In this document: one piece after another, positions 29,115-53,228 of the stretch | Layout of the letters: every line of letters starts with the position of its first letter | Position numbering within the stretch: the stretch's first letter is position 1 | Assembly (NCBI RefSeq): GCF_902499555.1 | Contig: NZ_CABVMM010000009.1 | Location: 93,178 to 157,177, forward strand | DNA length: 64,000 nt | Reading direction: 5' to 3' | Source: Mesonia oceanica | GTDB taxonomy: Bacteria; Bacteroidota; Bacteroidia; Flavobacteriales; Flavobacteriaceae | Made by a program: the position numbers and the translations under genes | Notes under the pieces: generated by a model | Databases searched by the model: none | The model's input: only the letters and a program-made list of their open reading frames with translations | Told to the model about the DNA's origin: nothing

Positions 29115-29510
29115 ATGAAAGATCATTTTCAAATTACCAAAAACTTTTTATTGGAGCTTAATTTCAATATTACTTATGAGAATCAAAAAGACGAAGTTAT
29201 AGTGGTACAAAAGGAAAACTTCGGCATTAAAAATTTAATTCTAGGAGTTTCACCGCCTATATTAATTATGGAGCAATTCATATTTAATATCAGCAATCAA
29301 TCAGAAAAAGTCTTTAGAAGTCTATTGCAGAAAAATCGGGATATTATTCATGGCGCTTTTGTGTTAGACGAATCTGGAACTCGTGTAATTTTTAGGGATA
29401 CACTCCAAATAGAAAATTTAGACCTTAATGAACTCGAAGGTTCGTTAAACTCATTGAGCTTATTAATGAGTGAATACTCAGACAACATCATAGAATTTTC
29501 AAAATATTAA
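29115..29510 (+). CDS. YbjN-like (T3SS-chaperone-like fold) putative sensory/chaperone protein
   Basis: 131 aa acidic protein, size and composition similar to YbjN family; first gene of cluster with pspA. Confidence 0.35.
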   Translation: MKDHFQITKNFLLELNFNITYENQKDEVIVVQKENFGIKNLILGVSPPILIMEQFIFNISNQSEKVFRSLLQKNRDIIHGAFVLDESGTRVIFRDTLQIENLDLNELEGSLNSLSLLMSEYSDNIIEFSKY

Positions 29511-29521
29511 AAACCATTATT

Positions 29522-30235: not shown

Positions 30236-30237
30236 CC

Positions 30238-30939
30238 TTGAACGACTTGATCAACATCATATTTTCTGAAGTAAACCTTGTACTTACCTGTTTACTTCTT
30301 TTATTAGTCGTTTATTGGATATTAACGATGGTTAGCGGAATTGACTTTGACCTGGATGTTGATGTGGATATTGATGTAGACGTAGATGCCGATGCCGGGA
30401 TCGAAGGTGGGAATATGGATTTTCAAGACGTCTCGAATGCCGAAGTAGATAAAGATACGGTTGTTGGTAAACGACGTCAGCCCCTAAAATGGTGGCAAGT
30501 ATTTTTAATTTATTTCAATTTCGTAGGCTTGCCCTTTATGTTCACTTTTACCTGTTGGGTTTTTGTCTGGTGGTTTATTACTGTATTTACCACAAGCCTT
30601 ACACATAGTTACGACTCCAGTTTCGGATTTTTAATTATGATTTTAGCCTTTATTCCGGCGCTTATTATTACTAAGGTGATCACGACACCATTCAAGAATT
30701 TTTTCAAAAATCTGAATAAAGATGGAGATAAGGCAGTCGATTATATCGGGAGGCGTGGCGTTATGCTTTCAACAGTTTCCGAAGAAAAAATGGGAAATGC
30801 AGAAGTCGTCATCGATGGTAATTCATACAATATTTACGTGAAGTCGCTAGACGGTTCGACCATAGCTTATCATCAAGAAATTTTAATCATCAATAAGTCG
30901 AAAGACAACAATTATTTTTTAGTACAAATCTATAACTAA
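30238..30939 (+). CDS. NfeD/YqiJ-like inner-membrane protein (partner of flotillin)
   Basis: 233 aa; N-terminal TM, acidic DV-repeat (DLDVDVDIDVDVDADAG), 3 more TMs, C-terminal OB-like soluble region; located immediately upstream of an SPFH/flotillin gene as in E. coli yqiJK. Confidence 0.5.
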   Translation: MNDLINIIFSEVNLVLTCLLLLLVVYWILTMVSGIDFDLDVDVDIDVDVDADAGIEGGNMDFQDVSNAEVDKDTVVGKRRQPLKWWQVFLIYFNFVGLPFMFTFTCWVFVWWFITVFTTSLTHSYDSSFGFLIMILAFIPALIITKVITTPFKNFFKNLNKDGDKAVDYIGRRGVMLSTVSEEKMGNAEVVIDGNSYNIYVKSLDGSTIAYHQEILIINKSKDNNYFLVQIYN

Positions 30940-30955
30940 CTTAACTTAAATTATT

Positions 30956-33046: not shown

Positions 33047-33055
33047 ACTATTATT

Positions 33056-33086
33056 AACCTACAAGGTTTTACAAACCTTGTAGGTT
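33056..33086 (+). terminator. Perfect 14-bp palindrome AACCTACAAGGTTT-tac-AAACCTTGTAGGTT after flotillin gene
   Basis: Direct reading; shares CCTACAAGG core with hairpin at 38306-38347. Confidence 0.45.
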
Positions 33087-33184
33087 TGATCATAGATTTA
33101 GGATTGTCATCTGCTGTCAGTTTGAGACTTTCAGCGAAGCTCAATACAGGCTTAGTCAAGAACTATATAGCACCTAAAATTGAG

Positions 33185-33286
33185 CGTTACCCTGAACTTG
33201 TTTTAGGGGCTCATTCAGATGATTTCAAAATGAAGATGTGATGCTGAGTCAAGCTTGCCTGCCGGGTGGTCAGGCTCAGCATGACG
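33185..33286. repeat. REP/MITE-like elements (cgttaccctgaacttgttttaggggctcattcagatgatttc; gatgtgatgctgagtcaagcttgcctgccgggtggtcaggctcagcatgacg)
   Basis: Same word family as the trp-operon repeats. Confidence 0.6.
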
Positions 33287-33358
33287 TTAATTTTAACCAC
33301 AATCATTTCTTTTTAAAATTCAAAAAGAATTAATTAACCGCTTGTTCAAAAATTACTT

Positions 33359-36300: not shown

Positions 36301-38227
36301 TTCGCCTAAAACCAGGGCTAAAGCTCAGTTTTTTTGGCATAGTTTACCAGAAGAACTTCAACAGAAATTTAATGAAGTTTTAAAATCTTCCGGAGAAGTT
36401 TTGAGCTTTTTTCCTGATACGAAAGAATACGATTTTTTAATTCAGCAATTAGAAAGTGCTATTTTTCAAGTGGCAGAAAACTCGGTCTTACTTTCTACGT
36501 CAAATAGCAAAGCGATGGCCAATTACTTGTTTGAAGAATTGCAGGGCGACGATCAGTTTCAAATAAGTGGAGATGCTTTGAAGATCAAAGAAGGTTTCTT
36601 GAAGACGCTTCAGGAAAAGCAAGCCGATTTAAAATTTAAGAACAGCTATGAAAAATTAGACGAGCTTGAAGCTAAAATTCAGCTAATTCGGCAATGGGTA
36701 AATTCTTTCCTAAGAACATCTTCTGCTAATTATGAGGAAGTCTATGTAGATGAGGTAGTGGCTATCATCTTGTTTAGCGATGATTCTGTTGAGAAAGTTA
36801 AGCATATTTCGGCAAGGGAAACCATTCAAGATTTAAAAGGCGATCACCCGACTTTAAAAGAAGGGGAGTTTCAATTTAACTATCATGAGTTTATTGCTGC
36901 TTTAGCCGCATATAATGAAGAAATTGTACCGGCTTACCAAGCGTTTAAAAAAGCAAAACAAGAAGTTACTGAAAGTTTAAAAGAAGATTTAAAACTGGAA
37001 GAATTGAAACCAAGGGTGTTGACTTCTTTTGTGAGAAACAAGCTCATCAACGAAGTGTATTTACCGCTTTTTGGAGATAATTTATCGAAGCAGTTAGGAA
37101 CTGTGGGCGATTACAAACGCACCGACAGAATGGGAATGTTGCTGCTCATTTCGCCACCGGGTTACGGAAAAACCACTCTAATGGAATATATTGCCAATCG
37201 GTTAGGATTGGTATTTATGAAAATCAATGGTCCTGCGATAGGACACGAAGTCACTTCGGTAGATCCGGCGGCAGCCAACAACTCGGCAGCGCGAGAAGAA
37301 CTAAAGCGACTGAATTTGGCTTTTGAAATGGGCAATAATGTCATGTTGTACTTAGATGATATTCAGCATTGCCATCCTGAATTTTTACAGAAATTTATTT
37401 CGCTCTCTGATGGAACCCGAAAAATAGAAGGGGTTTATAAAGAGAAATCAAAAACCTACGATTTACGCGGAAAGAAGTTTTGTGTGATTATGGCAGGAAA
37501 CCCATATACCGAAAGTGGAGAAAAGTTTAGGATTCCCGATATGTTGGCCAACCGAGCCGATATTTACAACTTAGGAGATATTATTGGTGATACCGCACAT
37601 TTATTCAAATTAAGTTTAATCGAAAATGCACTCACCTCTAACCCGACTTTACAGCAATTAAGCAGTAAACATTTTGATGATATTTATCGACTGATTGATC
37701 GTGTGGAAAATCAAAATCCTGAAATTCAGCTGGAAGGTAATCATACGCCACAAGAAGTGCAGGACTATGTTTCGGTTTTAGAGAAAGTAATTACGATTAG
37801 AGATACTGTGTTGAGGGTGAACGAAACCTACATCAAATCGGCTGCGATGGAAGATGAATATAGAACAGAACCGGCATTTAAATTACAAGGTTCTTATCGT
37901 GATATGAATAAACTGATCGGTAAAGTCGTGCCGATTATGAATAAAGAAGAACTTGCTACTTTATTACTGTCTCATTATGAAAGTGAATCGCAAACGCTCA
38001 CCACTTCTGCAGAAGCGAATTTATTAAAGTTTAAAGAGCTTCAACAAAATTTGACTGCCCAAGAAAATGAACGTTGGAATGTGATTAAAGAAACCTTTCT
38101 GAAAAACAATAAACTGAAAGGCTTAGGCAATAAAAATGAAATGGCTCAGGTATTGAACCAAATGGTGGCCTTCACAGATAATCTAGAAGGCATTAAACGA
38201 GTTTTGGAGCAAGGTTTTATGAAATAG
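33359..38227 (+). CDS. Giant (1622 aa) multidomain protein with C-terminal AAA+ ATPase domain of the MoxR/dynein-like (AAA_5) type; function unknown
   Basis: Walker A LLISPPGYGKTTLMEYIA (~aa 1265), Walker B VMLYLDDIQH, sensor-1 CVIMAGNP; Q/E-rich N-terminal coiled coil, beta-rich region aa ~60-420, long central helical/coiled-coil region. Confidence 0.7.
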   Translation: MQEEQQEQNNQTLDGGTYEIIKSRLQKQKQELQQRLQQLNESRKEVFGSLETKLIANNRINTENNCIARDIVSIDKLCIFGYNVHFGLRTEITLDDVFSIYEYKDQQFEPVSLALIEDSTFQTDFTNLYKYYRNTIFSKFAIIGNYLHMVFQLSDSVTDIKTFKWLINDGKLSYIDNRSEHEYKFPQQHEFNWQQAGRDEQRHGEHSHISILDKVFVETIGGDLTIKIEDNTHDGKGIYNEPVEYQDQTLDDGQFRFANLGNLIVLEIKPFQEEARYFVYNHKLQEVQKIDSIKDAAVLLPDEQGIIFPNGYYLQTGEYQIFDSDTRNLKFQKRIASPNGEDYLFVFYAQDRGMYVLMSYNVIEQTVQTPIICNGYTVQPNGELCYFKGEEEQTKHHMVQIWQTPFLKGDIMPSQHQDTMLYKIGNKDIVRAMAEAQELINLLSKEDNYSGLYDDVAKLSKDILDTYYWLSEEETQQLNLPLSEINKAANAAIDEFEKVVQLKRNAKQETEKFTKKAEEVFSKVKSTSFKSIEDFVKLLNQMRTLRGEAIGLYEIRYVDETLIKSIEEEIAEFTEKISQRCVQFLLDEKALAPYHEKVEEKKIALDKIEKVIEAKNLEEEVNQIAQDLEMLIEIVSNLDIEDTSHSTKIIDNISLIFATLNQLKAAIKNKRKSLGSKEAKADFAAQLKLIDQSIINYLDIADTTEKTEDFQTKISIQLEELEGKFADFEEFISQIIEKREEVYNAFEARKNAITEKRNKRSLALENAADRILKGVDKRALNLGSATEINGYFASDLMVNKLRDIIQQLKDLDNSGRAEELETKLKVAREDALRKLKDKLELYEDGDNVIKFGKHKFGVNKQTLDLTIVYRNHQLQYHLTGTDFYEEVTNPILLNSRSLWDQEYISENEQVYRSAYLAYKLFSSLPFSKLANANSEELLKTVQEESSSNYAEGYVKGVHDRDAADILEVLVRKHQELGLLRYSPKTRAKAQFFWHSLPEELQQKFNEVLKSSGEVLSFFPDTKEYDFLIQQLESAIFQVAENSVLLSTSNSKAMANYLFEELQGDDQFQISGDALKIKEGFLKTLQEKQADLKFKNSYEKLDELEAKIQLIRQWVNSFLRTSSANYEEVYVDEVVAIILFSDDSVEKVKHISARETIQDLKGDHPTLKEGEFQFNYHEFIAALAAYNEEIVPAYQAFKKAKQEVTESLKEDLKLEELKPRVLTSFVRNKLINEVYLPLFGDNLSKQLGTVGDYKRTDRMGMLLLISPPGYGKTTLMEYIANRLGLVFMKINGPAIGHEVTSVDPAAANNSAAREELKRLNLAFEMGNNVMLYLDDIQHCHPEFLQKFISLSDGTRKIEGVYKEKSKTYDLRGKKFCVIMAGNPYTESGEKFRIPDMLANRADIYNLGDIIGDTAHLFKLSLIENALTSNPTLQQLSSKHFDDIYRLIDRVENQNPEIQLEGNHTPQEVQDYVSVLEKVITIRDTVLRVNETYIKSAAMEDEYRTEPAFKLQGSYRDMNKLIGKVVPIMNKEELATLLLSHYESESQTLTTSAEANLLKFKELQQNLTAQENERWNVIKETFLKNNKLKGLGNKNEMAQVLNQMVAFTDNLEGIKRVLEQGFMK

Positions 38228-38305
38228 TTCGCTTATAAATAAACCAGAATTGAATAGAGAAATAGCTCAAATCCTGAATGGAAATTTGGTATGAGCTTTA
38301 CTGTT

Positions 38306-38347
38306 AAAAACCTACAAGGTCTTTTTTGTTTGACTTTGTAGGTTTTT
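38306..38347 (+). terminator. Rho-independent terminator (aaaaacctacaa...ttgtaggttttt + T-run) after the 1622-aa gene
   Basis: 12-bp stem, followed by ttttttt. Confidence 0.5.
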
Positions 38348-38743
38348 TTTATCCTATGACTATAAAAGCTTTTATTAAAGTTTAACGTTGAATGAAATTA
38401 GGGGATAAAATTTCCGGGGAAATTCAATAATTAGTCTAAAGTACCTAGAAAACTTTTGTATGAAATACAGTTTACTATTTCTATGATCGGTATTTTATCT
38501 TTAAAAACTAATGAATATCCAAGGTAGTTGTAGGTAAATAAGAATTTTATTTTCAATAAAAAAATATTAAAAAATCATTAAATTTATGTTTTCTTTACAT
38601 TATCTTTATTTTAAGGTGCATGATATAAGATTATTAAATTTTAACCTATGGATATTGTGATTAACGTAATAATGATATTAGGAGGTATTTCCTTTTTAGG
38701 GATTGTCTTGGATGAATTAATGAAGACTTTATAGGTCTTAACA

Positions 38744-38971
38744 TCAATCTTCCCAACCACAAAGGCTTCTTTTTAGTTTTTTAGCGTCTTCTAAGCTTAT
38801 CTTTTTAATACACGCTTTACAGGCATTTAGCCCTCTGCAATCATTTGTATAATGGTATTTCTTAGCGGTTTGACTATCGCAGATAAATACCGATTTTTCT
38901 GAACTTACCAGCGCTAAGTTGATACTGGAAAATGTAATGAAAACAATAAAAAAGAGTAGTTTCTGTTTCAT
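38744..38971 (-). CDS. Small secreted Cys-rich protein (75 aa, 6 Cys)
   Basis: Signal peptide MKQKLLFFIVFITFSSINLALVSS; CDSQ...CRGLNACKAC...C pattern. Confidence 0.4.
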   Translation of the reverse strand: MKQKLLFFIVFITFSSINLALVSSEKSVFICDSQTAKKYHYTNDCRGLNACKACIKKISLEDAKKLKRSLCGWED

Positions 38972-39254
38972 AATAATTGGTTGTAATAATAAGATTCTAT
39001 TAAAAAATTGAGTTTGTGATTTATAAAATCAGCGCTCAACTAATTTACAAAATATACTATAACTTAAACCGTTGCCTATTAAAAAATAAAATTCATCATC
39101 ATTTTCAAGGTATTTCTGGAACAAACGCTAGGGTAAAAGATTTTCGCAATTCTATAGTTGCCTATAAAATTATTGGTATTACAGGGCATCGAAATAGTAA
39201 GAGCTTTAAATATATTATCAAGTAAATTTTTTGGCTACAATTAGTACAGTAAAT

Positions 39255-39372
39255 AGAACTTTTAGAAAATATAATTATATGTAAACACATATAATATTTA
39301 GTTTTGTATTTTAATTATATGGAATCACATATAATTTTGTATATTTAACTGTATTTATACGTTAAAACATAT
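39255..39372 (+). promoter_or_regulatory. Three palindromic operator-like repeats TATATGT-N4/5-ACATATA(AT) upstream of hipB-like gene
   Basis: atatgtaaacacatataat; ttatatggaatcacatataa; aaaacatataATG (overlapping start codon). Confidence 0.5.
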
Positions 39373-39373
39373 A

Positions 39374-39595
39374 ATGGAATCATTAGCATCATTTGTAAAA
39401 GCACGAAGAAAAGAAGTAAACTTAACCCAAGAAGAGTTTGCAAATCGAGCAGGGGTAGCATTAACCGTTATCCGTAAGATAGAACAAAACCAAACAAATT
39501 TGAACCTGGATAAAGTAAATCAGGTGTTAAAAATGTTTGGTCATCAACTAGTACCGGTTAGTTTAAAAGATATAGAAGTTAATGAGGCAAGCTAA
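39374..39595 (+). CDS. hipB: HipB-like XRE-family HTH protein (73 aa)
   Basis: HTH_XRE motif LTQEEFANRAGVALTVIRKIEQNQTNLNLDKVNQVLKMFG; first gene of 3-gene operon with 14-nt overlap to next ORF. Confidence 0.65.
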   Translation: MESLASFVKARRKEVNLTQEEFANRAGVALTVIRKIEQNQTNLNLDKVNQVLKMFGHQLVPVSLKDIEVNEAS

Positions 39596-39914
39596 GATTT
39601 TTTACGATACTGCTTATTGTGGTAAACTAACAGAGACCAATGATGGAGAGTTCGTATTTAAATATGATGAAAATTACGTGCGTGACTATCCCAATCAATT
39701 TATCACTTTTACCATGCCTGTTCGTAAAAAAGAATATAAAGAAAAACGCCTGTTTGCCTTTTTTGAAGGTTTAATTCCTGAAGGTTGGCTATTGGATATT
39801 GCTTCCAAAAATTGGAAAGTTAATAGAAACGACCGAATGGGATTATTGTTGACTTGTTGTAAAGACTGTATAGGAGCAGTAAGTGTTCACCCCATAGCAA
39901 CTGATGATGAGTAA
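39582..39914 (+). CDS. hipS: HipS-like protein = stand-alone HipA N-terminal (couple_hipA) domain (110 aa), putative antitoxin
   Basis: FFEGLIPEGWLLDIASKNWKVNRNDRMGLLLTCCKDCIGAVSVHP matches HipA N-domain consensus (LLPEG...GxDCxGA). Confidence 0.65.
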   Translation: MRQAKIFYDTAYCGKLTETNDGEFVFKYDENYVRDYPNQFITFTMPVRKKEYKEKRLFAFFEGLIPEGWLLDIASKNWKVNRNDRMGLLLTCCKDCIGAVSVHPIATDDE

Positions 39915-40848
39915 GTGTTTATACTGTTATAAAGAGGTTTCGGGAGAAAGTGACTTTCATCAAGCTTGTAGTTTAAGGTTTTTTGGAACAAAAACTCCTC
40001 CTAAAATTGCTCATTCTATTCAAGAAATGAAGGAATTAGCTAAACAGGTTGTAGAACGTAGCATAGCTGTTCCTGGGGTGCAACCAAAAATATCGATGTC
40101 TATATTTGATAATAATAGCGATCAGAGGCTTACCGTGGTAGGGGCATTAGGAGGAAATTATATTTTTAAACCACCTTCAGAACATTTTCCTGAAATGCCT
40201 GCCAATGAACATGTCACGATGAAAATGGCTGAATTATTTAATATTTCCGTTGTCCCACATTCATTGATCAGGCTTTCTTCCGGTGAATTATCTTATATCA
40301 CCAAACGAATAGATCGTAAAGAAGATGGAAGTAAAATTCATATGATCGATATGTTTCAGGTCGTAGAAGCATTTGATAAATACCGAGGATCGATGGAACG
40401 TATAGGGAAGGCGGTTCTTGAATATGCAGAAAATACGCTATTAGATATTTTGCGTCTTTTTGAATTAACTGTTTTTAGTTATCTAACGGGAAATAACGAT
40501 ATGCACTTAAAAAACTTCTCCCTAATAAAAGCAGATTATGGATGGACGCTTTCTCCAGCTTATGATCTGCTAAATATTTCTATTGTAAATCCGGACGATC
40601 AGGAAGAACTGGCTTTAACACTTGCCGGGAAAAAGAAAAAAATAACTAGAAAATTATTAGTCGATTTTGGTCTTGGTTTAGAATTAACCCCAAAACAAAT
40701 AAACGGGGTTTTTAAAAGATTTCAAAAGTCTAAAAATAAAGCTATTGACTTAATTCATAATTCGTTTTTAAGTGAAGAAATGCAGAAGTCTTATATAAAA
40801 TTATTAGAAAATAGGTATGAAATTCTCTTGAAAGAAAATGAGTTGTAA
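39904..40848 (+). CDS. hipT: HipT-like Ser/Thr kinase = HipA C-terminal catalytic domain (314 aa), putative toxin
   Basis: VPGVQPKISMSI (HipA 'GaQpKfsl' motif), catalytic loop GNNDMHLKNFSL, SPAYDLLN motif; N-terminal CxxC...H..C extension. Confidence 0.7.
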   Translation: MMSKCLYCYKEVSGESDFHQACSLRFFGTKTPPKIAHSIQEMKELAKQVVERSIAVPGVQPKISMSIFDNNSDQRLTVVGALGGNYIFKPPSEHFPEMPANEHVTMKMAELFNISVVPHSLIRLSSGELSYITKRIDRKEDGSKIHMIDMFQVVEAFDKYRGSMERIGKAVLEYAENTLLDILRLFELTVFSYLTGNNDMHLKNFSLIKADYGWTLSPAYDLLNISIVNPDDQEELALTLAGKKKKITRKLLVDFGLGLELTPKQINGVFKRFQKSKNKAIDLIHNSFLSEEMQKSYIKLLENRYEILLKENEL

Positions 40849-40974
40849 ATCAAAATAATTTATGTTGAATAGTTCGGAGAAATTCTAGTAAGCAAATTTT
40901 ATATTGTATACGGAAGTTTTAACTAATATTTTATAGAATCTAAAGATTCTTTTTTTTGATTCTTAACGAGATGA

Positions 40975-41000
40975 AACAGGTAAGTAATCTACCTGTTTCT
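40975..41000 (+). terminator. Terminator hairpin AAACAGGTA-agtaatc-TACCTGTTT + T-rich tail after hipT
   Basis: Perfect 9-bp stem directly read; separates hipBST from the CRISPR array. Confidence 0.5.
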
Positions 41001-41038
41001 TGTTTATTGTGTTAAATGTTAGGGTAATATATCTTTAA

Positions 41039-41866
41039 GTTGTGAATACCTTTCCAACTAAAGGCTGTTACAACGGTTGCAAAACCATTGAAAAGGAGTT
41101 GCCTGTTGTGAATACCTTTCCAACTAAAGGCTGTTACAACATGGTAGGGAAACATAACAAAGACGAAAGTGTTGTGAATACCTTTCCAACTAAAGGCTGT
41201 TACAACATTCAATCAAACAATTGTATTATAAAATTAGTTGTGAATACCTTTCCAACTAAAGGCTGTTACAACCAACAATGTATGGGCGATGAATGCCGCC
41301 TTGTTGTGAATACCTTTCCAACTAAAGGCTGTTACAACCAGATCGCTAGACAAAAGATTAAAAGACGGGTTGTGAATACCTTTCCAACTAAAGGCTGTTA
41401 CAACATGGCGTTCAAGACAATTGGAGACAAATAGGTTGTGAATACCTTTCAAACTAAAGGCTGTTACAACTTGCGGGATATGGTTATGATGAGATCGCTC
41501 GTTGTGAATACCTTTCAAACTAAAGGCTGTTACAACATTACCAGATGTTTTAACCCCTGTTACTATGTTGTGAATACCTTTCCAACTAAAGGCTGTTACA
41601 ACTTGTGACGATTGTATAACAAAAGAATTCTAGTTGTGAATACCTTTCCAACTAAAGGCTGTTACAACCAATACACTCCTCACAAGGCTTTTCGGTATGT
41701 TGTGAATACCTTTCCAACTAAAGGCTGTTACAACAAAAAATTTGGTATCCCTATTGAATACGATGTTGTGAATACCTTTCCAACTAAAGGCTGTTACAAC
41801 CATCGATCTTTCTTCACAAACAAGCGACTTGTTGTGAATACCTTTCCAACTAAAGGCTGTTACAAC
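41039..41866 (-). CRISPR. Type VI-B CRISPR array: 13 repeats x 36 nt (GTTGTGAATACCTTTCCAACTAAAGGCTGTTACAAC on +; transcribed form likely GTTGTAACAGCCTTTAGTTGGAAAGGTATTCACAAC), 12 spacers x 30 nt
   Basis: Repeats at 41039,41105,41171,41237,41303,41369,41435,41501,41567,41633,41699,41765,41831 (each +35); repeats 7 and 8 carry the same C->A change (TTTCAAACT); 36/30 nt geometry is diagnostic of Cas13b arrays; minus-strand orientation inferred from similarity of the reverse-complement to the published B. zoohelcum DR. Confidence 0.95.
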
Positions 41867-41961
41867 CTATTTTATATAAGGTATTGTTAATTAATGTGTT
41901 TATTGAAAAACCTTCAGATAAAATGATGTCAAAGAGCTTTACAAAGCTAAAATCATAATGC

Positions 41962-44900
41962 TTATTTAAATTCTAGTATGGTTTGATTTGTATATTCTAG
42001 GAATAATTCATTAAAATTAATAGACACTGCATTAGGCACATTTTTATAAATTTCATCGTAATAAATTTTTCTTGGTAATTGATTATGTGAAAACTTATTA
42101 CGTATCATTACTAATAAAAAAGCTTTTTCCATAATTTTTGATTGTTTTTTCAACTCATCTATAGGAGTAGTATCAAAATCTTTTTTGGAAATTAGCCATT
42201 TTGCGTCTTCTTCAGAAACTAATTCTAAGCTTTTAAGGAATGTGGTCAAATATTTATTAAAATTAGGATGTTCATTAGTATCAATTAATGTGGGTAATTT
42301 CTTGATCATATATTTTTCAAATTCCTGAATACTTTTTAGTAAATAATCTCTTCGTATTACCTCATAAGAATTTGCTTTTAGTTCTAAAACTTCTTCTAAC
42401 TCTGTTTTATTCCAAATCTTCTGAGGTTTATATTCAAAAAGGGTTTGTACTTTTTGACTAGCAATAAATTTTTTGAATTTTCCAAGTTCTTTTAGTTTAA
42501 CTTGGGGTTCGTAGATATTTTTACTGCAATAAGGTACCGTTAATGTCCATGCAGAAGTAGATTTAATGATGTTTGCTGAATTATCACCAGTAGTTTTATG
42601 GCTTTGGATTAAGGCAGCCTCGATTTCTGCTTTACGTTCTGTTTGTGTTTTATAAATATCACTGAGATTTAAATCTAAATGTTCAGCATCCTCAGGTAGG
42701 TATAATTCATTAAAAATAATACTGGCCATTTTAGCTAGTAATACATCTTGTTGTTTTACTTTGTTGATTTTAGATCCTTGAACTCTAATAAATCGCTTTT
42801 CTGTTTTTTCCTGTTCACCTGATAAATAAGCCGATTTATAATCTCGATCCCAACTATAGAATTTTTGATAATCAGTATGTTGGTTCCAGGCAACATACCA
42901 GTCGGCAAAACATTCCGGATTTTCCTGTATACTTTTACCTTTGATATAAGTAGGTTTGTGATCAAAAACACCTTTTGGAAACTGCATGGGCTTAACCAAT
43001 AGTTTTTCTACCTGTTCTTCTATAGTATCAATAACATACAGTCGCTTATGAAATAAATTCCATAGATGTTGTTGTTTTATGAATTTATCTAAAATCTTTT
43101 TGTTTGATCTAATTCCATTCAACTGATCTTTGAATCTTTGGAAGGTTTCTTTTCTGTTGTTTAAATAAGAGGTATAGAATGAAATAAAATCTCGCTTATC
43201 AAATGATCTTCTAATCCCATTGTTCCATAGATAAGCTTCGTTCTTAAAATCCCAAACCTCTTCGAGCAAGCTTAAGGGCTCTTTAGGTTGAATATCATAG
43301 AAAGCCAAAGATTTTTGCAATTGGCTATGATGCTGTCCTCGCCAATTTTGCCTACTTCCTTTTGGCATAAAACGCTTTAAATCATTAGCTAGCCAGGTAA
43401 CTTGTAGCCCTATTTCTTTATTGGTAAAAACATATTTTCGCTTTTGTTTGGGATCGTTTCGTTCTTTAATATGTAGAGCTATGGTTTGTAGTTTGTCATT
43501 GGTAACCGCTATTTCTTTTTCTATTGCGAGTTGAAGTTTGTCCAGATTTACTTCCTTTTTTTGTTTAGCTTTTAGAAGGTTTTTGGTAATCTGTCCTTTA
43601 GAAATATCGTCACCAGCTTTATAGTTGGTCAGTACATTATAGCGTTCTGCAATCTTTTGAGCTATTATTATTTCAATTTCTTCTGGAGTCTTTTTAGTTA
43701 AAACTAGGTGTAATAACGCAGGTAACTCATTTAAAGACAGCATTGCAACTGGAGCCAGTTTTTCAGGTTTACCCAAATCCTGTAAAATAGCATCCGGTTT
43801 TATTTTATTATCGGTTCTAACTTTATATTCTTCTGGATGATCCGATTTGTAACTAGAGTTTCGTTTTTTTAAACGACCTGCCACAATTTTCACCTCTTTA
43901 GGAAAAAAGTGTTCATTTAAATTGAGATGAATAGGAATGTTGTTTCCTACGAAATTGTAAGATGGATTAGGATATAGTTGTAGTCCTATGCTTTGGTGAT
44001 TTTCTTTTTCTTCAAAATATTTTTGTTTTAATTGAGCAGCCTCGCTAAGTTTTGCGAATGCTTTAATTTTTTCTTTTACGATTCTCTCAGTTACATATTT
44101 TGTGCCTTCAATAGGCTTTTCCCTTTTATCGTGTACATAATTTCCTAAATGAAGTTGAAACCGTAGGGTTGGAAAATCTACAAATTCATCTAAAAATCGT
44201 AATGCAAAATATGCGAATTTATTTTCATAGCGCTTACGGATTACAGGATGAATAACGGTGGCTTTATCTAAACTTTCTGAATTTTCTTCTTTAAGATATT
44301 CATTCATATCTTCTAGAAATTCATTCTTTAATTCTTCAGGAAGTACCTGGTAAAGCTCATCTGGGACTTTGCTTAATTCATCTACAATTTGCGCAAGTAG
44401 TGTGTCTTTTGTGAACGTAGTCGTAAATCTGTTTTTTAAACCTTTAAAACCTAAATAGCCAAACACCCAGTGGGTAGCCATATATTTTAAGCTATTATTT
44501 TTCTTATTTATAGGATTTTCTGGGTTAACAATCAGTTTTGCTTTAAAACCTTTTACCCGGCTTCTTAGATCTTCACTTTGCTTTTTGGTAAGGAAAAGTC
44601 CAAGAAGAAAAATAATCCCACTTTCAGATATGGTTACACCATTTTCAGTATCGATATCTTCAGTAGGGACAGCACTATAATATTTGCTTATAGTGTTTTC
44701 TTTAGGAAGAAGATGGGAAAAACTGTCATTCAAAATAGCGTTGGTGATAGCCTCTTTATCATTTAAATTAACTTTTTTTCCTTCTCTTTTTAACTTTTTA
44801 AGGTCTTCTAATTTTAATTTTTCTAATTGTGCTAATTCTTCAATCAACCCTTTTTTTAGCAATTGTTTGGAAGCATCAGTTTTCATTCGATGTTTTTTAA

Positions 44901-45366
44901 CATCATTAGCTACTGCTAAAAAAAGATCGTCTAATAATTTATAAGTTTCAGGAAATACAGGGATAGGTTTGTGGAAATGATGCGTGTAGAAATTACGATA
45001 ATCTCTGATTAAATTTTTGAGTACCTTGAGAGAATTCTTAAAGTAATTTCTTTGTTCAGAAATTAATTGGTTTTTAGGTACATTTTCGAACCTTTTATGG
45101 GATGTAGGTAAGTATAAATATCGAATAACAGGTAAATTTTTTTGTAGAAATTCGACACCTAATTGATATTCTGCTATAGCCTTGTCTTGAGTGAAAAAAT
45201 CTAATATACAAGACTTTGGTTTCATCCCAAACTTTTCTTTAAAAGCCTTGGAAAGATCGTTAATGTTATTTTGAGCTAAGTTAAAATATCCTCCAAAATA
45301 ATGTTTATCTTCTATACTGGCATAATTATACTCTAAGCGTTTTGCTAAATAATCGGTTTCATTCAT
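41962..45366 (-). CDS. cas13b: Cas13b (C2c6) RNA-guided RNase, type VI-B effector, 1134 aa
   Basis: HEPN1 RNFYTH at aa 124-129 (nt 44997..44980) and HEPN2 RNKFSH at aa 1089-1094 (nt 42102..42085); long stretches near-identical to B. zoohelcum Cas13b (e.g. HPVIRKRYENKFAYFALRFLDEFVDFPTLRFQLHLGNYVHD; GIIFLLGLFLTKKQ); adjacent 36/30 array. Confidence 0.95.
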   Translation of the reverse strand: MNETDYLAKRLEYNYASIEDKHYFGGYFNLAQNNINDLSKAFKEKFGMKPKSCILDFFTQDKAIAEYQLGVEFLQKNLPVIRYLYLPTSHKRFENVPKNQLISEQRNYFKNSLKVLKNLIRDYRNFYTHHFHKPIPVFPETYKLLDDLFLAVANDVKKHRMKTDASKQLLKKGLIEELAQLEKLKLEDLKKLKREGKKVNLNDKEAITNAILNDSFSHLLPKENTISKYYSAVPTEDIDTENGVTISESGIIFLLGLFLTKKQSEDLRSRVKGFKAKLIVNPENPINKKNNSLKYMATHWVFGYLGFKGLKNRFTTTFTKDTLLAQIVDELSKVPDELYQVLPEELKNEFLEDMNEYLKEENSESLDKATVIHPVIRKRYENKFAYFALRFLDEFVDFPTLRFQLHLGNYVHDKREKPIEGTKYVTERIVKEKIKAFAKLSEAAQLKQKYFEEKENHQSIGLQLYPNPSYNFVGNNIPIHLNLNEHFFPKEVKIVAGRLKKRNSSYKSDHPEEYKVRTDNKIKPDAILQDLGKPEKLAPVAMLSLNELPALLHLVLTKKTPEEIEIIIAQKIAERYNVLTNYKAGDDISKGQITKNLLKAKQKKEVNLDKLQLAIEKEIAVTNDKLQTIALHIKERNDPKQKRKYVFTNKEIGLQVTWLANDLKRFMPKGSRQNWRGQHHSQLQKSLAFYDIQPKEPLSLLEEVWDFKNEAYLWNNGIRRSFDKRDFISFYTSYLNNRKETFQRFKDQLNGIRSNKKILDKFIKQQHLWNLFHKRLYVIDTIEEQVEKLLVKPMQFPKGVFDHKPTYIKGKSIQENPECFADWYVAWNQHTDYQKFYSWDRDYKSAYLSGEQEKTEKRFIRVQGSKINKVKQQDVLLAKMASIIFNELYLPEDAEHLDLNLSDIYKTQTERKAEIEAALIQSHKTTGDNSANIIKSTSAWTLTVPYCSKNIYEPQVKLKELGKFKKFIASQKVQTLFEYKPQKIWNKTELEEVLELKANSYEVIRRDYLLKSIQEFEKYMIKKLPTLIDTNEHPNFNKYLTTFLKSLELVSEEDAKWLISKKDFDTTPIDELKKQSKIMEKAFLLVMIRNKFSHNQLPRKIYYDEIYKNVPNAVSINFNELFLEYTNQTILEFK

Positions 45367-45837
45367 GCTATTTTAAAAAAAAATGAAAAGGTAAGATACA
45401 CAATAGATGTTTTTAGTTCAATTAATTTTAATCAGAAAATTAAAGAATTTATTTTTTATTTTAATCTTGACCTTATATGATTCAATTTATCATCCTGATT
45501 GTTATAGCTCAATAATTTATTATTCCCTTTAGTGTAAATTTCTATTGATGTCTGAACCTTTTTTTCTGACACCTTGGTTGTCTATAAATGAAATTCCTCA
45601 ACCAATTTTAGTTTGAATTTTATTCTTTTTAAGGTTAAAAACTAAATCATCAATAGAGTCAGAAATGTCTATAGCTTTGTAAATTTCTTCTTTCATATTG
45701 ATGCTTCGATAGGCTTTAGAAATAAATGCCTTTTGTGCTTTCAAGCTTTCTTTTTACTTCTCGTAGATTATATTTTTTCTCAATAAGACCTAAAAATACA
45801 TACTGTCAATTCAAGTGTTTGTCACCTATAAAAAATA

Positions 45838-45865
45838 AACCCCGTAAACACAGGGCTTACGGGGT
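45838..45865 (-). terminator. Terminator hairpin (ccccgtaa..ttacgggg) + T-run downstream of tmRNA on minus strand
   Basis: ccccgtaaacacagggcttacgggg with ttttttat following on minus strand. Confidence 0.6.
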
Positions 45866-45881
45866 TGTAGAGTGGAGTCGG

Positions 45882-46268
45882 GGAGATTCGAACTCCCGTC
45901 CAAACAAGCAATTCAATAGCTTTCTACACGCTTATTTTTCACTTCAATTTTCGAGAAAGATCTGGCAGAAAACCTCCCAATCTTTCCTTAACCTTTAAGA
46001 TTTCAATAGCCCTTAAAGGTATCGAGCTACCTAGATTTACTTTATCGGTGCCTCTAGTTGGAACGCCATAAATCAAGGCTTTCCAGAGACATCTTAGCCC
46101 TATGCCTTGCATAGGTTAAGGTAATCTTACTTTAGTTCAGATTACGCAGCTAAGGCGTAATTATTTTCGCCGTTTAAAAAAGTTTGAAATATGAGATTTA
46201 CGAGCTGTATCCCAGCGCTCGACGTGCTTACTACTCAATTAGACTCGCTGTCAAAACCAGTCGACCCC
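45882..46268 (-). ncRNA. ssrA: tmRNA (SsrA), tag peptide (G)ENNYALAA
   Basis: 5' GGGGTCGACTGGTTTTGACAG...; internal ORF GGC GAA AAT AAT TAC GCC TTA GCT GCG TAA (46172..46143) = GENNYALAA*; 3' end GGACGGGAGTTCGAATCTCCCCGACTCCAC matches canonical tmRNA T-arm/acceptor. Confidence 0.9.
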
Positions 46269-48657: not shown

Positions 48658-48721
48658 AATTATTTAATTAGCAATTAAAGTGTTAAGTTTGTTTTAATCG
48701 AAATTACTTAACACTTTTTTA

Positions 48722-49822
48722 ATGCGAATAAATTATTATTTTTTAGTTTTATCTGCTATTTTCTTAATCTCATGTAGCGATGACGAAGGCTACTCTGAAA
48801 TTAGCGATGAATATCCTCCGGGGGAAACCCCTAAAGAAGAAATGGTAAGCTTCGATTTAGAAGCTGTTCCCTATTCAAAATTATCCGATTATAATTTTTA
48901 TGATGGAGAGTTGAAAGCTATGGAACCGGTAAGCACTGTCTTACCGTACGAATTGATAACTCCACTTTTTACAGATTACGCTAAGAAAAAGCGATTTATA
49001 TGGATGCCGGCCACAGAAAAAGCTTTGTTTGTAGCCGATAAAGAGATTTTTAACTTTCCTAACAGTACAGTTTTAATAAAAAATTTTTATTACGAGAAGG
49101 TCCTGCCCGAAAATGAACAAAAAATTATAGAAACCCGTTTACTATTTAAAAGAAACGGAAATTGGGAATTTGCCGATTATGTTTGGAATGATGAACAAAC
49201 AGAAGCTTATCTCGATTTAGAAGGGAGTTACGTTGCGTTAGAATGGGAAGAGAACGGGGAGATAAAAAGTACAGATTATCGAATTCCTTCAGAAAATGAA
49301 TGCGTAACCTGTCATAAAACAAATGAGATGCCAATCCCCATAGGGCCAAAACCTCAAAACCTAAATAGACTCTACAATTATACAGATGGAGAACAGCATC
49401 AGCTTCAAAAATGGGTAGACAAAGGTTTTTTAGAGAGTTTTCCTAAAGAAATTGTAACTGTAAAAGATTGGACAGACGAATCTCAACCTTTAGAACAACG
49501 GGTAAGGTCTTATTTTGATATTAATTGTGCCCACTGTCATTCTGAAAATGCCCATTGCTCCTATAGATCATTACGATTAGCTTATTCAGAATCTGAAAGC
49601 TTAGAACATATGGGAGTTTGTATAGAACCTGAAGAATATATAGCTCCTGGTTTGCTTTATATAATTATGGGAAATAACAAAGAGCGGTCTAATATGTATT
49701 ACCGTTTAAATAGCGAAGATGAAGCTTCAAGAATGCCTTTGTTGGGCAGAACAATTGTACATCGAGAGTATGTTGAATTGCTTGAAGAGTGGATTAATTC
49801 TTTAGAAAATAATTGCCAATAA
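48722..49822 (+). CDS. Lipoprotein with two CxxCH haem-c binding motifs (putative dihaem c-type cytochrome)
   Basis: 366 aa; lipobox LISCSD; CVTCH (~aa 195) and CAHCH (~aa 270). Confidence 0.5.
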   Translation: MRINYYFLVLSAIFLISCSDDEGYSEISDEYPPGETPKEEMVSFDLEAVPYSKLSDYNFYDGELKAMEPVSTVLPYELITPLFTDYAKKKRFIWMPATEKALFVADKEIFNFPNSTVLIKNFYYEKVLPENEQKIIETRLLFKRNGNWEFADYVWNDEQTEAYLDLEGSYVALEWEENGEIKSTDYRIPSENECVTCHKTNEMPIPIGPKPQNLNRLYNYTDGEQHQLQKWVDKGFLESFPKEIVTVKDWTDESQPLEQRVRSYFDINCAHCHSENAHCSYRSLRLAYSESESLEHMGVCIEPEEYIAPGLLYIIMGNNKERSNMYYRLNSEDEASRMPLLGRTIVHREYVELLEEWINSLENNCQ

Positions 49823-49838
49823 CCTTAAACTTAAACCA

Positions 49839-51839
49839 ATGAAAAAAATTACTTTTTTTACCTTATGTATCGCAAGTATAAGCTTGTGTATGGCTCAAGA
49901 TCTTTGTGAAGAAGCTCTAGGAGTTGATTTTGGAACCTATTCGGTAGGTGGGATCGATGGAGAACCCGCACCAGAAAACTGTATTAACCTTTTTAATAAT
50001 GGAGAAGCGGGCGAATGGTACAAATTTGTACCCCAACAAGATTATTACCTTGAAATTAGTACAGATTTAGCAGTGAATACGGGGAAAGATACACGTTTTC
50101 ATGTGTATGTAGGAAACTGTGATGACTTGACTTGCTTAGGGGGGGATGAAGATTCCGGTAACAATCTTTTATCTAAATTCCATTTTAATGCTACTCAAGG
50201 AACCACTTATTTTATAGTGTTTGATAACAAATGGTCCAGTGAAGGTTTTGATTTCGAAATTTCTGAATATGTAGCACCTGAAACTTTAATAGCTTTTGAA
50301 GCTTCCGTTATCAATCCAATGCCTCCTGGAAATACCTTAGGAGCAGTAGATATGACAGGAGATTTTTTAGATGACATTGTTTCTATAGCCGCAGATAATG
50401 TAAATATTCTAGAACAAACCACTCCTGGTACTTTTAATGAAATTAATATACCCACCTCTAATGCACCATTTATTCCTTCTTGGAGTTTTGCGGTAGCCGA
50501 CTTTGATAGAAATGGTTTTAATGATTTGTTGTATGGGGGGGGGGCTGGAGTAACTTTTATGAAAGCTTCTAGTGATGGAACAAGTTTTACAGAAATTAGC
50601 GATGATCAATTTGTGTTTTCACAACGTTCAAATTTTGTAGATATTAATAAAGATGGACATTTAGATGCATTTGTTTGTCACGATTGGGAACCCAATGTGT
50701 ATTATTTAAATGATGGTTTTGGTAATTTAGTTTTTAATCAAGGCGGTTTAGGAGATTCAGAACAAGGAGGTAATTATGGGTCTATCTGGGTAGATTATGA
50801 TAATGATGGCGATTTAGATTTATTTATAGCAAAATGTAGAGGTGGTAATACTGAAATTAAAATAAACCAAATGCATAGAAATAATGGGGACGGTACCTTT
50901 TCTGAAGTAGCGGAAGAAATTGGATTGGCAGACCCTATTCAAACTTGGTCTTCTGCTTGGGCAGATTTTGATAACAATGGTTTTATGGATGTTTTTGTAG
51001 GAGCAAGTTCGTTTGAGGATGGAAGTCATAAGCTCATGTATAATAACGGTGATGGCACATTTACCGATTTTACTACAGGAACAGGCATAGAAAATATGAT
51101 GTCTATGGGAACAGAAAATGTAGCCTATGATTTTAATAATGATGGCTATGTGGATATTTATGGAATCGGAGGGAGAATCTTGATTAATAATGGTGATATG
51201 ACTTTCACTGACGCACAAATCGATATCCCTAATGGACCTGTGGGCGATTTTAATAACGATGGATTTTTAGATATTATCGATTACGATAAAATTCAATACA
51301 ACCAACCCAACGGAAACAACTGGCTAAAAGTAGCACTTGTCGGTACAGAAAGTAATATCAATGGAATTGGAGCGAGAATTGAAGTGATCAGTGCGCTGGG
51401 TAAACAAATTAGAGATGTGAAAGCCGGTATTGGTTTTAGATATATGAATAGTTTAAATACCCATTTTGGTATAGGAGAAGATACAGAAATTTCCAAAGTC
51501 ATTGTGAAATGGCCTTCAGGAATTGTTGATGAAATAAGTAACCCAGATTTTAATAAAACCCTTGTGGTAGAGGAAGGATCTTTCCTTTCTGTAAATAAAA
51601 CGGCATACAAAAACTTGAGTTTATATCCTAACCCTGCCACAGAGGTGATACATATCAATTCGGCTTTTAATATTGAAGGTGAGAAATACGAAGTATTCTC
51701 TATTACAGGACAAAGACAGATCTCAGGAACCATTCAACAAGCTAGTTCTATTCAAATAGATCGATTAAGTTCAGGTATTTATTTTTTAAAAGTTTATGCA
51801 AATGGAAAAGTATTTCAGCGGAAATTTATAAAAGAATAA
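49839..51839 (+). CDS. FG-GAP/ASPIC-UnbV (CRTAC1-like) beta-propeller protein with T9SS C-terminal sorting domain
   Basis: 666 aa; signal peptide; repeated FDxNxDGxxD motifs (FDRNGFNDLL, DYDNDGDLDLF, DFDNNGFMDVF, DFNNDGYVDIY); UnbV_ASPIC-like KVIVKWPSG; C-terminal LSLYPNPATEVIHI...SGIYFLKV. Confidence 0.7.
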   Translation: MKKITFFTLCIASISLCMAQDLCEEALGVDFGTYSVGGIDGEPAPENCINLFNNGEAGEWYKFVPQQDYYLEISTDLAVNTGKDTRFHVYVGNCDDLTCLGGDEDSGNNLLSKFHFNATQGTTYFIVFDNKWSSEGFDFEISEYVAPETLIAFEASVINPMPPGNTLGAVDMTGDFLDDIVSIAADNVNILEQTTPGTFNEINIPTSNAPFIPSWSFAVADFDRNGFNDLLYGGGAGVTFMKASSDGTSFTEISDDQFVFSQRSNFVDINKDGHLDAFVCHDWEPNVYYLNDGFGNLVFNQGGLGDSEQGGNYGSIWVDYDNDGDLDLFIAKCRGGNTEIKINQMHRNNGDGTFSEVAEEIGLADPIQTWSSAWADFDNNGFMDVFVGASSFEDGSHKLMYNNGDGTFTDFTTGTGIENMMSMGTENVAYDFNNDGYVDIYGIGGRILINNGDMTFTDAQIDIPNGPVGDFNNDGFLDIIDYDKIQYNQPNGNNWLKVALVGTESNINGIGARIEVISALGKQIRDVKAGIGFRYMNSLNTHFGIGEDTEISKVIVKWPSGIVDEISNPDFNKTLVVEEGSFLSVNKTAYKNLSLYPNPATEVIHINSAFNIEGEKYEVFSITGQRQISGTIQQASSIQIDRLSSGIYFLKVYANGKVFQRKFIKE

Positions 51840-51844
51840 CAAAC

Positions 51845-51875
51845 AAAAAAGCAGGCTGAAGAGCCTGCTTTTTTG
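51845..51875. terminator. Bidirectional terminator aaaaaaGCAGGCTgaagAGCCTGCtttttt between convergent genes
   Basis: Direct reading. Confidence 0.6.
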
Positions 51876-51878
51876 TTT

Positions 51879-53228
51879 TTAAGAAGCTGAACTCCAATCT
51901 ATTTTTCGGGAAGCAAACATGATGATTGCTAGAATCATAAATAACCCAATACTTCCTATTAATAAAGCATAATTTTCAAGTTGAATAATAACGTAAATAA
52001 AACTGTACACTCCTGCCAAAGAGAAACTAATGAGTAACGGGAATTTGATATTTTTAAAAATGAACCGGGAGTAAATCCCTATTAACACCAAGACCGAACT
52101 ACCGGCGATGAGATAAGCTTTAAAATAGGTAGCATGTTCAGAAATGGAAATGAGTAAACTGTAAAACATCACTAAGGCCAAACCAATCATTAAATATTGA
52201 AATGGATGGATGTAAATTTTGCTCACTAATTGAATCAAGAAGAAAACAATTAACGTTAAGCTAATCACCATAAAACCATATTTGGCAGTACGTTCATTTT
52301 TCTGATAATCATCAACAGGAATAATTAAATTGGTGCCGAAAGCAAATTGCGTGAGGTCGGGTAAATTTCCTTTAAACGATTGCTCAAATTGCCGGTTAAT
52401 TTGTAAGATTTTCCATTCTGCTTTAAATCCATTTTCGGTGATTTCGCGGGAACCATCTTCCGGTAAAAAGTTACCATCAAAACTAGGTGAAGCCCAATTG
52501 GAAATCATTTTCGCTTCTGTAGTTTTTCCTATCGGGATAAATTTTAATCGTTCACTTCCATTGATATCAATGTTTAGTTGAAAAGGAATCTTTTCATCTT
52601 TCACCTCTGCGAATTTAGAAATCGCTTCCGATTGTAAGGTCTTTAAGTTCTCTTGATTGTAAATAGGCATTAATGGAGAAGAAAGCGAAGCTAATTGTAT
52701 TTCTAACTGATTTTTAATTCCTTTTAGATTCGAAGTTTTAACCAATATACTGGCTTTTTCCCATAGCACATTTTCTGTAGGAATTTCAAATTCTTCCGTA
52801 GAAATTTTAGGGAAAAATCCTTTTAAATTTATTTGAGAATGATAAACAACCGACTTGTAAATACTACGTTCCAAAGGTTTGGTTTTTACATTAGCATCGA
52901 TAATTAATTCGTCCGGGAAGTAGTACAAATAGGAGAGGTGTTCTTCTTTTTTGGTGAGCATTTCTTCCCGTTTTTTATCGTATTCTTTTATTTCTGTATA
53001 ATAATGATAGGGGATTTTTAAAATAGGACCGGAGAGCAAAACTTCGTTTCCCCATTTTTGGTTGATCTCTGAAATCACTTGCGATTGCCGATTGGAGCGT
53101 TCATAAATAATATTTTTAACAAAACTAAGCGGTATGAGCAAGGCTAAGGCTAAAATACCTACAATGAGCATTTTGGCGGTGATGGAGTTTCTTAACCAAT
53201 TTCCAAATTTTCCTTTTTGATTTTCCAT
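51879..53228 (-). CDS. creD: Cell envelope integrity inner-membrane protein CreD
   Basis: 449 aa; N-terminal TM + LLIPLSFVKNIIYERSNRQ segment resembling E. coli CreD; C-terminal multi-TM block. Confidence 0.6.
   Translation of the reverse strand: MENQKGKFGNWLRNSITAKMLIVGILALALLIPLSFVKNIIYERSNRQSQVISEINQKWGNEVLLSGPILKIPYHYYTEIKEYDKKREEMLTKKEEHLSYLYYFPDELIIDANVKTKPLERSIYKSVVYHSQINLKGFFPKISTEEFEIPTENVLWEKASILVKTSNLKGIKNQLEIQLASLSSPLMPIYNQENLKTLQSEAISKFAEVKDEKIPFQLNIDINGSERLKFIPIGKTTEAKMISNWASPSFDGNFLPEDGSREITENGFKAEWKILQINRQFEQSFKGNLPDLTQFAFGTNLIIPVDDYQKNERTAKYGFMVISLTLIVFFLIQLVSKIYIHPFQYLMIGLALVMFYSLLISISEHATYFKAYLIAGSSVLVLIGIYSRFIFKNIKFPLLISFSLAGVYSFIYVIIQLENYALLIGSIGLFMILAIIMFASRKIDWSSAS

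Follow-up and report, generated by a model that had tools for sequence, protein, structure and literature searches.

A HipBST and type VI-B Cas13b cassette in a variable slot beside the tmRNA gene of Mesonia oceanica

In a stretch of 64,000 nt from Mesonia oceanica (contig NZ_CABVMM010000009.1 of assembly GCF_902499555.1, positions 93,178 to 157,177; hereafter, the window), a type VI-B CRISPR–Cas13b locus and a predicted HipBST operon lie next to ssrA, the gene of the transfer-messenger RNA (tmRNA). Our comparisons suggest that the cassette formed by these genes was probably acquired or replaced within a plastic slot flanking ssrA, by a mechanism of entry of which the sequence no longer bears a readable trace. 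According to this scenario, positions 39052–45857 would be a horizontally acquired composite defence cassette uniting HipBST with a minimal type VI-B system (effector plus array), in a recombination-prone slot bounded by ssrA on one side and by a Cys-rich open reading frame (ORF) and a DUF3686 ATPase gene on the other, and recombination in this plastic region would be preferred as the route of entry over a still-recognisable ssrA-targeted integrative element. The initial annotation of this DNA had proposed an ssrA-integrated island; its accessory nature, its adjacency to ssrA and the plausibility of ssrA as a target are borne out, whereas no recombinase, recombinase remnant or att duplication was found. 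Type VI-B loci, HipBST and variable regions flanking tmRNA genes are all already known kinds of elements. What the present case offers is a precisely delimited example, in an abundant marine flavobacterium, of a minimal Cas13b exchanged as a cassette beside a tmRNA gene, and a correction to the tempting inference that DNA adjacent to ssrA must be an integrated island, as the usual signatures are absent here.

Limits and content of the cassette

The limits of the cassette were drawn against the closest available relative, the locus L104 (GCA_008692195.1; 92% amino acid identity in the AlaDH-like protein, 85–87% nucleotide identity in the flanks, and 93% in ssrA), in which the DUF3686 gene is followed by a homolog of the 75-aa Cys-rich ORF, a gene for an 897-aa superfamily 1 (SF1) helicase on the minus strand, ssrA, and the AlaDH-like gene. 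Nucleotide homology to L104 ends at position 39051 and returns at 45858, 14 nt past the end of ssrA, so that the window-specific DNA spans 39052–45857, and the slot thus holds 6806 nt in the window versus 2955 nt in L104 (table 1). The accessory series listed in the initial annotation (spacer, cas13b, CRISPR array, and hipBST) is indeed there, and a 2.95-kb helicase segment stands in its place in L104. The island had been extended to about 38.2 kb, and if it is broadly right that core-type genes resume around this point, the limit of the cassette is found at 39052, which places the earlier estimate about 0.8 kb too far left. This shift takes the Cys-rich mini-ORF out of the cargo to which it had been assigned, since it belongs to a flank conserved in L104, where 38640–39051 is about 80% identical at the nucleotide level despite the absence of the cassette; as it is kept in L104 without cas13b, its candidacy as cargo or as a Cas13b accessory was also ruled out. 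A 103-nt block at 38636–38738 is likewise conserved in relatives that have no cassette. As a side observation, this block, downstream of the DUF3686 ATPase gene, contains a 28-aa hydrophobic ORF (MDIVINVIMILGGISFLGIVLDELMKTL; 38648–38734, plus strand), whose protein sequence is conserved in L101, L102, and L104 inside otherwise unalignable intergenic DNA and which is probably a real small membrane protein. Further left, the DUF3686 ATPase shares 83% identity with its counterpart in M. phycicola and about 70% with those of other genera, which are the levels observed for the AlaDH-like gene, and its synteny is kept in L101–L104.

Table 1. Features of the slot and of its borders in the window (positions are those of the window)
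Feature	Position	Strand	Basis or remark
DUF3686/DUF7902/AAA+ ATPase, 1622 aa	33359..38227	+	Pfam; core-like; borders the slot on its left in this Mesonia subclade
Cys-rich ORF, 75 aa, signal-peptide-like N-terminus	38744..38971	-	Conserved flank, outside the cassette
Lineage-specific cassette, 6806 nt	39052..45857		blastn of L104 versus the window; junction alignments
Two tandem imperfect palindromes (39273–39295 and 39314–39336)	39273..39336		Upstream of hipB; repeat search
hipB (73 aa), hipS (110 aa), hipT (314 aa)	39374..40848	+	Pfam; PDB
CRISPR array	41039..41866	-	13 repeats of 36 nt, 12 spacers of 30 nt; co-oriented with cas13b
cas13b, type VI-B effector, 1134 aa	41962..45366	-	NCBIfam NF038190 (VI_Cas13b)
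Non-coding AT-rich spacer upstream of cas13b	45367..45837		ORF lengths at chance; no family matches
Intrinsic terminator of ssrA	45838..45866	-	12-bp stem, then a T-run
ssrA (tmRNA)	45872..46268	-	ARAGORN; tag GENNYALAA; conserved right anchor of the variable slot

The assignment of the effector is firm: it scores 860 bits against the NCBIfam model (cutoff 150), is also called Cas13b by PADLOC, matches the BzCas13b structure (PDB 6AAY) with E=2e-121, and retains both HEPN RxxxxH motifs (R124/H129 and R1089/H1094), the residues of which are invariant in an alignment of 18 sequences. The repeat of the array is GTTGTAACAGCCTTTAGTTGGAAAGGTATTCACAAC (in short, GTTGTAAC...CACAAC), with GTTG...CAAC ends. 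This organization closely resembles that of the type VI-B loci described by Smargon et al. (2016/2017; bioRxiv 10.1101/092577), with a single effector of about 1130 aa (HEPN RxxxxH motifs N- and C-terminal), repeats that are 36 nt long and have GUUG...CAAC ends, 30-nt spacers, a Bacteroidota host, and no cas1 or cas2, the cassette containing no cas gene besides cas13b. Unlike most type VI-B loci, no Csx27 or Csx28 gene was found next to cas13b, the neighbours of which are here the HipBST operon and the tmRNA gene: cas13b aside, the DNA from hipT to ssrA contains no ORF in the range of 200 aa, and the small ORFs have no PADLOC match. Given that about 80% of type VI-B loci carry one of these accessory genes and that the presence of csx27 in VI-B1 loci is inconsistent (bioRxiv 10.1101/092577), the accessory gene is missing from about 20% of known loci, and its absence here does not exclude type VI-B membership. 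By its predicted function, Cas13b guided by the CRISPR RNAs of the array would cleave phage transcripts, and its collateral RNase activity would lead to growth arrest. Three of the 12 CRISPR spacers were searched in IMG/VR and gave no exact match.

On the strand opposite to the array, the three genes hipB, hipS, and hipT form what is, judging from domains and structural matches, a tripartite toxin–antitoxin operon, as predicted by HTH_3, Couple_hipA (E=4e-24), and HipA_C (E=5e-43) domains in Pfam. HipT aligns along its entire length with Legionella HipT (PDB 7vkb, E=9e-48) and also matches HipT of Escherichia coli O127 (7ab3_C), and HipS matches 7vkb_B and 7ab3_B. As in the HipBST systems of E. 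coli O127 (PDB 7AB3) and Legionella pneumophila (PDB 7VKB/8EZR), hipB comes first, followed by hipS and hipT, the ORFs overlap (here by 14 and 11 nt), HipS corresponds to the N-terminal subdomain of HipA, and HipT to the kinase core. Unlike these known representatives, the operon is found in a marine flavobacterium and linked to CRISPR–Cas13b, and the kinase role is predicted here from sequence: HipT would act as a kinase toxin restrained by HipS and HipB. The tandem palindromes upstream of hipB, whose unit is ATTATATG-N6-CATATAAT, are likely HipB operators. Outside cas13b, the ORFs of at least 60 aa in 39052–45871 amount to hipB, hipS, and hipT, one 69-aa ORF without PADLOC match, and artefacts running across the CRISPR repeats.

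On the other side of cas13b, ssrA itself is intact and uninvolved. The gene is recognized by Rfam (RF00023, 45870–46268, 135 bits), and its minus-strand orientation, GENNYALAA tag, and own terminator are all as initially annotated, save that its 3' end lies at 45872 according to ARAGORN and not at 45882. This 10-nt offset brings the distance between ssrA and cas13b, gene-less as announced, from 515 to 505 nt (45367–45871; GC of 26.5%). Hairpins are also found at the position equivalent to the ssrA terminator in relatives, each having its own. The spacer had further been read as decayed coding sequence on account of short reading-frame fragments; these fragments exist, yet their length is that expected by chance (longest ORF of 48 aa, P=0.31; longest stop-to-stop stretch of 51 aa, P=0.58; null of 2000 Markov shuffles), and they have no match at E<=10 in Pfam or PADLOC. 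In tblastx, the spacer likewise has no match in 80 flavobacterial ssrA loci (E<=0.1) nor in the loci L093–L096, which carry the closest Cas13b homologs (E<=1), and Rfam finds no family in it except the tmRNA 3' end. The cas13b promoter presumably lies in 45367–45837, where the canonical Bacteroidetes −7 box, TAnnTTTG, was not found.

Plasticity and composition of the slot

The ssrA gene (minus strand) and the AlaDH-like gene (plus strand) form a divergent pair kept in 59 of the 60 Flavobacteriaceae loci scanned, and the AlaDH-like gene of the window is 84% identical to that of M. phycicola and 82% to that of M. aestuariivivens. The 3' side of ssrA is, for its part, polymorphic among relatives, with a helicase in L104, an empty site in M. 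hippocampi, and different cargo in others. In the comparison with relatives that had been proposed as a check, L104 and other Mesonia species have no such cassette beside ssrA. In M. hippocampi, a rhodanese gene directly abuts ssrA, whereas the slot of M. aestuariivivens holds 6.4 kb with TonB receptor, MbnP, and MauG genes, and Olleya also has other cargo. The differences extend to L101 and L104: their DUF3686 genes are 94% identical, but their helicase genes share only 79% of nucleotides, their breakpoints differ, and L101 has additional genes, which shows the slot to be plastic over short evolutionary distances.

How far the variable DNA extends to the left was mapped by clustering the ORFs of 80 ssrA loci. 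In M. hippocampi, Olleya, and Gilvibacter, the block found at 20.0–28.08 kb of the window, which comprises trp genes, YceI, nitroreductase, and MarR genes, two AhpC/TSA genes, and two rhodanese genes, runs right up to the 3' end of ssrA, and none of the window genes between 28086 and 45366 is present in the 10-kb ssrA 3' flanks of the 79 sufficiently long loci (of 80, from other species). The rhodanese gene abutting ssrA in these three taxa first suggested a 17.8-kb insertion. A single recent island of this size (28.08–45.87 kb) was nonetheless rejected, as M. phycicola and sister contigs share the HTH/S24–PspA–flotillin–DUF3686 block at the identity of core genes. More precisely, the order rhodanese–HTH/S24–CesT-like–PspA–233-aa protein–flotillin–DUF3686 is kept in M. 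phycicola and in two sister-species contigs, and this conservation, together with the core-level identity of DUF3686, implies that the block was already present in the ancestor of this Mesonia subclade, as the product of an older rearrangement at the level of the clade.

As for what occupies the slot, the cargo found in other taxa is mostly metabolic, with the TonB/MbnP/MauG genes already mentioned, a mannosylglycerate-utilisation cluster, and glycosyltransferases; defence cargo (Septu, TmtA, type I restriction–modification, PDC-S28, and PDC-M62) is found beside ssrA in some other Flavobacteriaceae. In the manner of defence islands and plasticity regions, CRISPR–Cas, toxin–antitoxin, and, in the sister genome, a possible defence helicase alternate between conserved flanks. 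Unlike dedicated defence hotspots, however, the slot carries cargo that is mostly metabolic or transport-related across the family, on which basis we do not regard it as one. With regard to the helicase, the 897-aa protein (AAA_11/AAA_12 domains; L104:6266–8959 and L101:14830–17523, both on the minus strand) has partial PADLOC matches to Mokosh MkoA/MkoC, Hhe, and PDC-S37 in its SF1 helicase domain, and may be a defence gene.

The DNA composition of the slot is deviant too. The segment 38228–45871, which contains the cassette, has a GC content of 0.308 against 0.348±0.011 for the core, and a tetranucleotide L1 distance of 0.218 against 0.111±0.013, values that none of 300 core chunks of the same size equalled in either measure; the AT-richness initially noted is thereby confirmed by comparison with the flanks. 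Elsewhere, the closest Cas13b, 67% identical, is that of M. hippocampi, which lies on another contig beside a type I restriction–modification system, DUF4365, and RteC, and whose nucleotide homology with the window is limited to cas13b and the repeats, hipBST and the spacer having no match there. Homologs from Neptunitalea occupy yet another locus, one of them beside HicAB (L095:13610–14210). A tmRNA gene was found within the fetched 10-kb flanks of none of the 36 other cas13b loci (3 genomic and 33 metagenomic), among which a single distinct locus has a tRNA gene near cas13b, 2.4 kb away.

Routes into the slot

If the cassette had entered by site-specific integration at ssrA, traces might be expected in the form of a recombinase or of a repeated attachment site, both of which were sought. 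The terminal 30-mer of ssrA quoted in the initial annotation occurs once in the window, at 45872–45901, with no second copy even when up to 3 mismatches are allowed, and no exact match of at least 13 nt to the terminal 80 nt of the gene exists elsewhere in the window; matches of 11–12 nt are scattered and unrelated to the boundary. The earlier failure to find a repeat of the ssrA 3' end on the distal side is thus upheld by exact and fuzzy searches of the whole window, and neither junction alignments nor a repeat search found direct or inverted repeats bracketing the cassette. The same att search covered 59 loci besides the window; as a side observation, copies of 13–14 nt of the ssrA end occur some 155–187 nt downstream in two Gilvibacter loci and one Flavobacterium locus (L027:9227, L047:9356, and L059:9231), and these may be att scars or chance matches. 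The cassette contains no recombinase, and a tblastn search of the window with three large serine recombinases (LSRs) recovered only 22–56 aa antisense to ssrA (E of 0.3–3). A decayed integrase, Csx27, or Csx28 in the spacer was accordingly rejected, ORF lengths, Pfam, PADLOC, tblastx, and the LSR search being all negative.

A positive control shows what such integration looks like in this family. A Pfam scan of the 104 proteins nearest to ssrA in 57 loci found LSRs with Resolvase and Recombinase domains at L030:7851–9533 and L044:7759–9345, and a clustered homolog, 62% identical to L044, lies at L049:504–2090; all three genes abut the ssrA 3' end. About their last 30 codons are antisense to the ssrA 3' end, their coding sequence encloses the terminator hairpin of ssrA, and a C-terminal LSR remnant is detected by tblastn beside ssrA in Wocania (L032:9011–9307). 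This indicates that, in Kordia and in metagenome-assembled genomes (MAGs) of uncultured Flavobacteriaceae and Flavobacterium, LSR-type elements have inserted precisely at ssrA, and establishes ssrA as a bona fide integration target in Flavobacteriaceae. Like these loci and the ssrA islands of Dehalococcoides (PMC3146451), the window has deviant accessory DNA directly 3' of ssrA at a variable site. Unlike islands at tmRNA or tRNA genes, its cassette is devoid of integrase, recombinase, and mobility genes, is not accompanied by a direct repeat of the ssrA 3' end, spans only 6.8 kb, and gives way to a non-mobile helicase in the sister genome.

The cassette could then be an eroded ssrA-integrated element, whose recombinase gene (an LSR, by analogy with relatives) and distal att site were later deleted, an account that would explain why its right boundary sits at the ssrA 3' end and terminator and why its composition is foreign, and that agrees both with the intact LSR genes running into the antisense of ssrA and with the reputation of tmRNA genes as well-known integration sites of islands (e.g., PMC3146451). 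We nevertheless find it rather unlikely, for the window holds neither a recombinase ORF nor a remnant beyond the residues antisense to ssrA, its spacer ORFs match no family and are as long as expected by chance, a second copy of the ssrA end is missing from the window, the cassette is not flanked by repeats, and the place where an LSR gene abuts ssrA in occupied sites is here taken by the own terminator of ssrA and about 470 nt of non-coding DNA. Furthermore, the alternative occupant of the slot in L104 is also devoid of a recombinase, and the left breakpoints vary among close relatives. Vertical descent of a cas13b–hipBST arrangement already present beside ssrA in the ancestor of the Mesonia subclade, then lost or replaced in relatives, appears very improbable to us. 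The arrangement is indeed fixed within the sampled population, and the related Cas13b of M. hippocampi places cas13b elsewhere in the genus; but this homolog lies at an unrelated locus in a different context while the ssrA site of the same species is empty, its 67% identity is lower than the 72% of the AlaDH-like protein, the helicase present in both L104 and L101 is the more parsimonious older state of the slot, and the GC content falls below that of every core chunk sampled.

The adjacency might also be functional, with read-through from the highly transcribed ssrA driving basal cas13b and CRISPR RNA expression, or with tmRNA rescuing ribosomes stalled on mRNAs cleaved by Cas13b. The shared minus-strand orientation of ssrA, cas13b, and the array, in which ssrA comes first, and the lack of a canonical −7 box in the spacer would fit this idea, which we hold to be scarcely credible given the strong terminator after ssrA, the absence of any conserved linkage (no ssrA near any of the 36 other cas13b loci), and the fact that tmRNA acts in trans and has no need of proximity. 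Acquisition or replacement of the cassette within the plastic slot is the reading we retain, and general recombinational plasticity fits the differing breakpoints and the mostly non-mobile-element cargo of relatives at least as well as site-specific integration does. Several observations nonetheless weigh against it. Neither a donor element nor an identical cassette was found elsewhere, so that the horizontal origin rests on absence in relatives and on composition, and the low GC is in part due to intergenic DNA and to the CRISPR array. In this population, the cassette is present in all metagenomic contigs and in the same arrangement, and thus no recent gain or loss and no polymorphism within the population is seen. 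Lastly, the cassette stops on its right at the 3' end of ssrA, the exact point of LSR integration in relatives, which keeps a site-specific origin followed by recombinase deletion in consideration as the doubtful alternative described above.

In the assembly collection, more than 100 blocks contain exact copies of Cas13b, of the AlaDH-like protein, of the HTH/S24 protein, and of a rhodanese, and the contigs with exact copies that were read are mostly from Tara Oceans marine metagenome assemblies, in addition to the MAG GCA_002696985.1. Carriage of the cassette by plasmids was considered and rejected, as Cas13b has no match among the plasmids of PLSDB, where only weak nucleotide matches to hipST are found, on Bacteroidota plasmids. 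One metagenome contig stands apart, L083 (ERZ27286482 k119_1490103), which is 100% identical to the window over 31962–46221, with a junction at 46222–46264 and 11 mismatches that all fall in the first 47 nt of ssrA, followed by a Flagellimonas-like flank (67% nucleotide identity in AlaDH). A recombinant would account for this, but a chimera assembled across a conserved gene is the probable explanation, and the contig was not used as evidence.

HipA-family neighbours of cas13b and other observations

Two metagenome loci with cas13b also have HipA-family genes nearby: canonical HipB and HipA are encoded directly upstream of cas13b, with a Fic protein downstream, at L109:547–2195, and canonical HipBA lies about 0.9 kb upstream of cas13b at L133:7319–9129, where a small serine resolvase gene immediately precedes cas13b and UmuDC follows it. 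Together with the HicAB of the Neptunitalea locus, toxin–antitoxin systems thus turn up repeatedly as neighbours of cas13b. The cas13b genes of the window, L109, and L133 are only 40–44% identical to one another, which implies that these associations are independent. One could imagine on this basis that HipA-family kinase modules recur as functional partners of Cas13b systems lacking an accessory gene, where they would replace Csx27/Csx28 as an amplifier of dormancy, an idea that we judge improbable; in a weaker version, the position behind ssrA may give read-through expression or tie the damage done by Cas13b to trans-translation. With these data, the recurrence is statistically indistinguishable from ordinary defence-island clustering. 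The HipA-family neighbours of cas13b offer a lead for a possible synergy between defence systems.

To the left of the slot, the ancestral cluster at 28086–38227 encodes an HTH/Peptidase_S24 repressor, a CesT_Tir_1-like protein, PspA/IM30, a 233-aa protein of unknown function, a 696-aa SPFH/flotillin protein, and the 1622-aa DUF3686-DUF7902-AAA+ ATPase. Its dinucleotide signature is strongly deviant (delta* of 94, against 30±7 for the core) despite the vertical inheritance of its genes. A second, paralogous PspA/CesT-like cluster, accompanied by spermine synthase, AdoMetDC, DUF350, and DUF4178 genes, is found at L101:17535–23794.

To the right of ssrA, a 366-aa cytochrome-c-like gene and a 666-aa FG-GAP/UnbV_ASPIC/Por_Secre_tail gene at 48658–51892 are missing in L104, which has 0.8 kb instead, and in L105, a contig that ends before ssrA and whose AlaDH is 99% identical to that of the window. 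This is a second variable segment, probably polymorphic within the species. Finally, Rfam matches elsewhere in the window comprise a Bacteroid-trp leader upstream of the trp genes (24081–24201, minus strand, 81 bits) and a Flavo-1 small RNA (17590–17685, plus strand, 60 bits).

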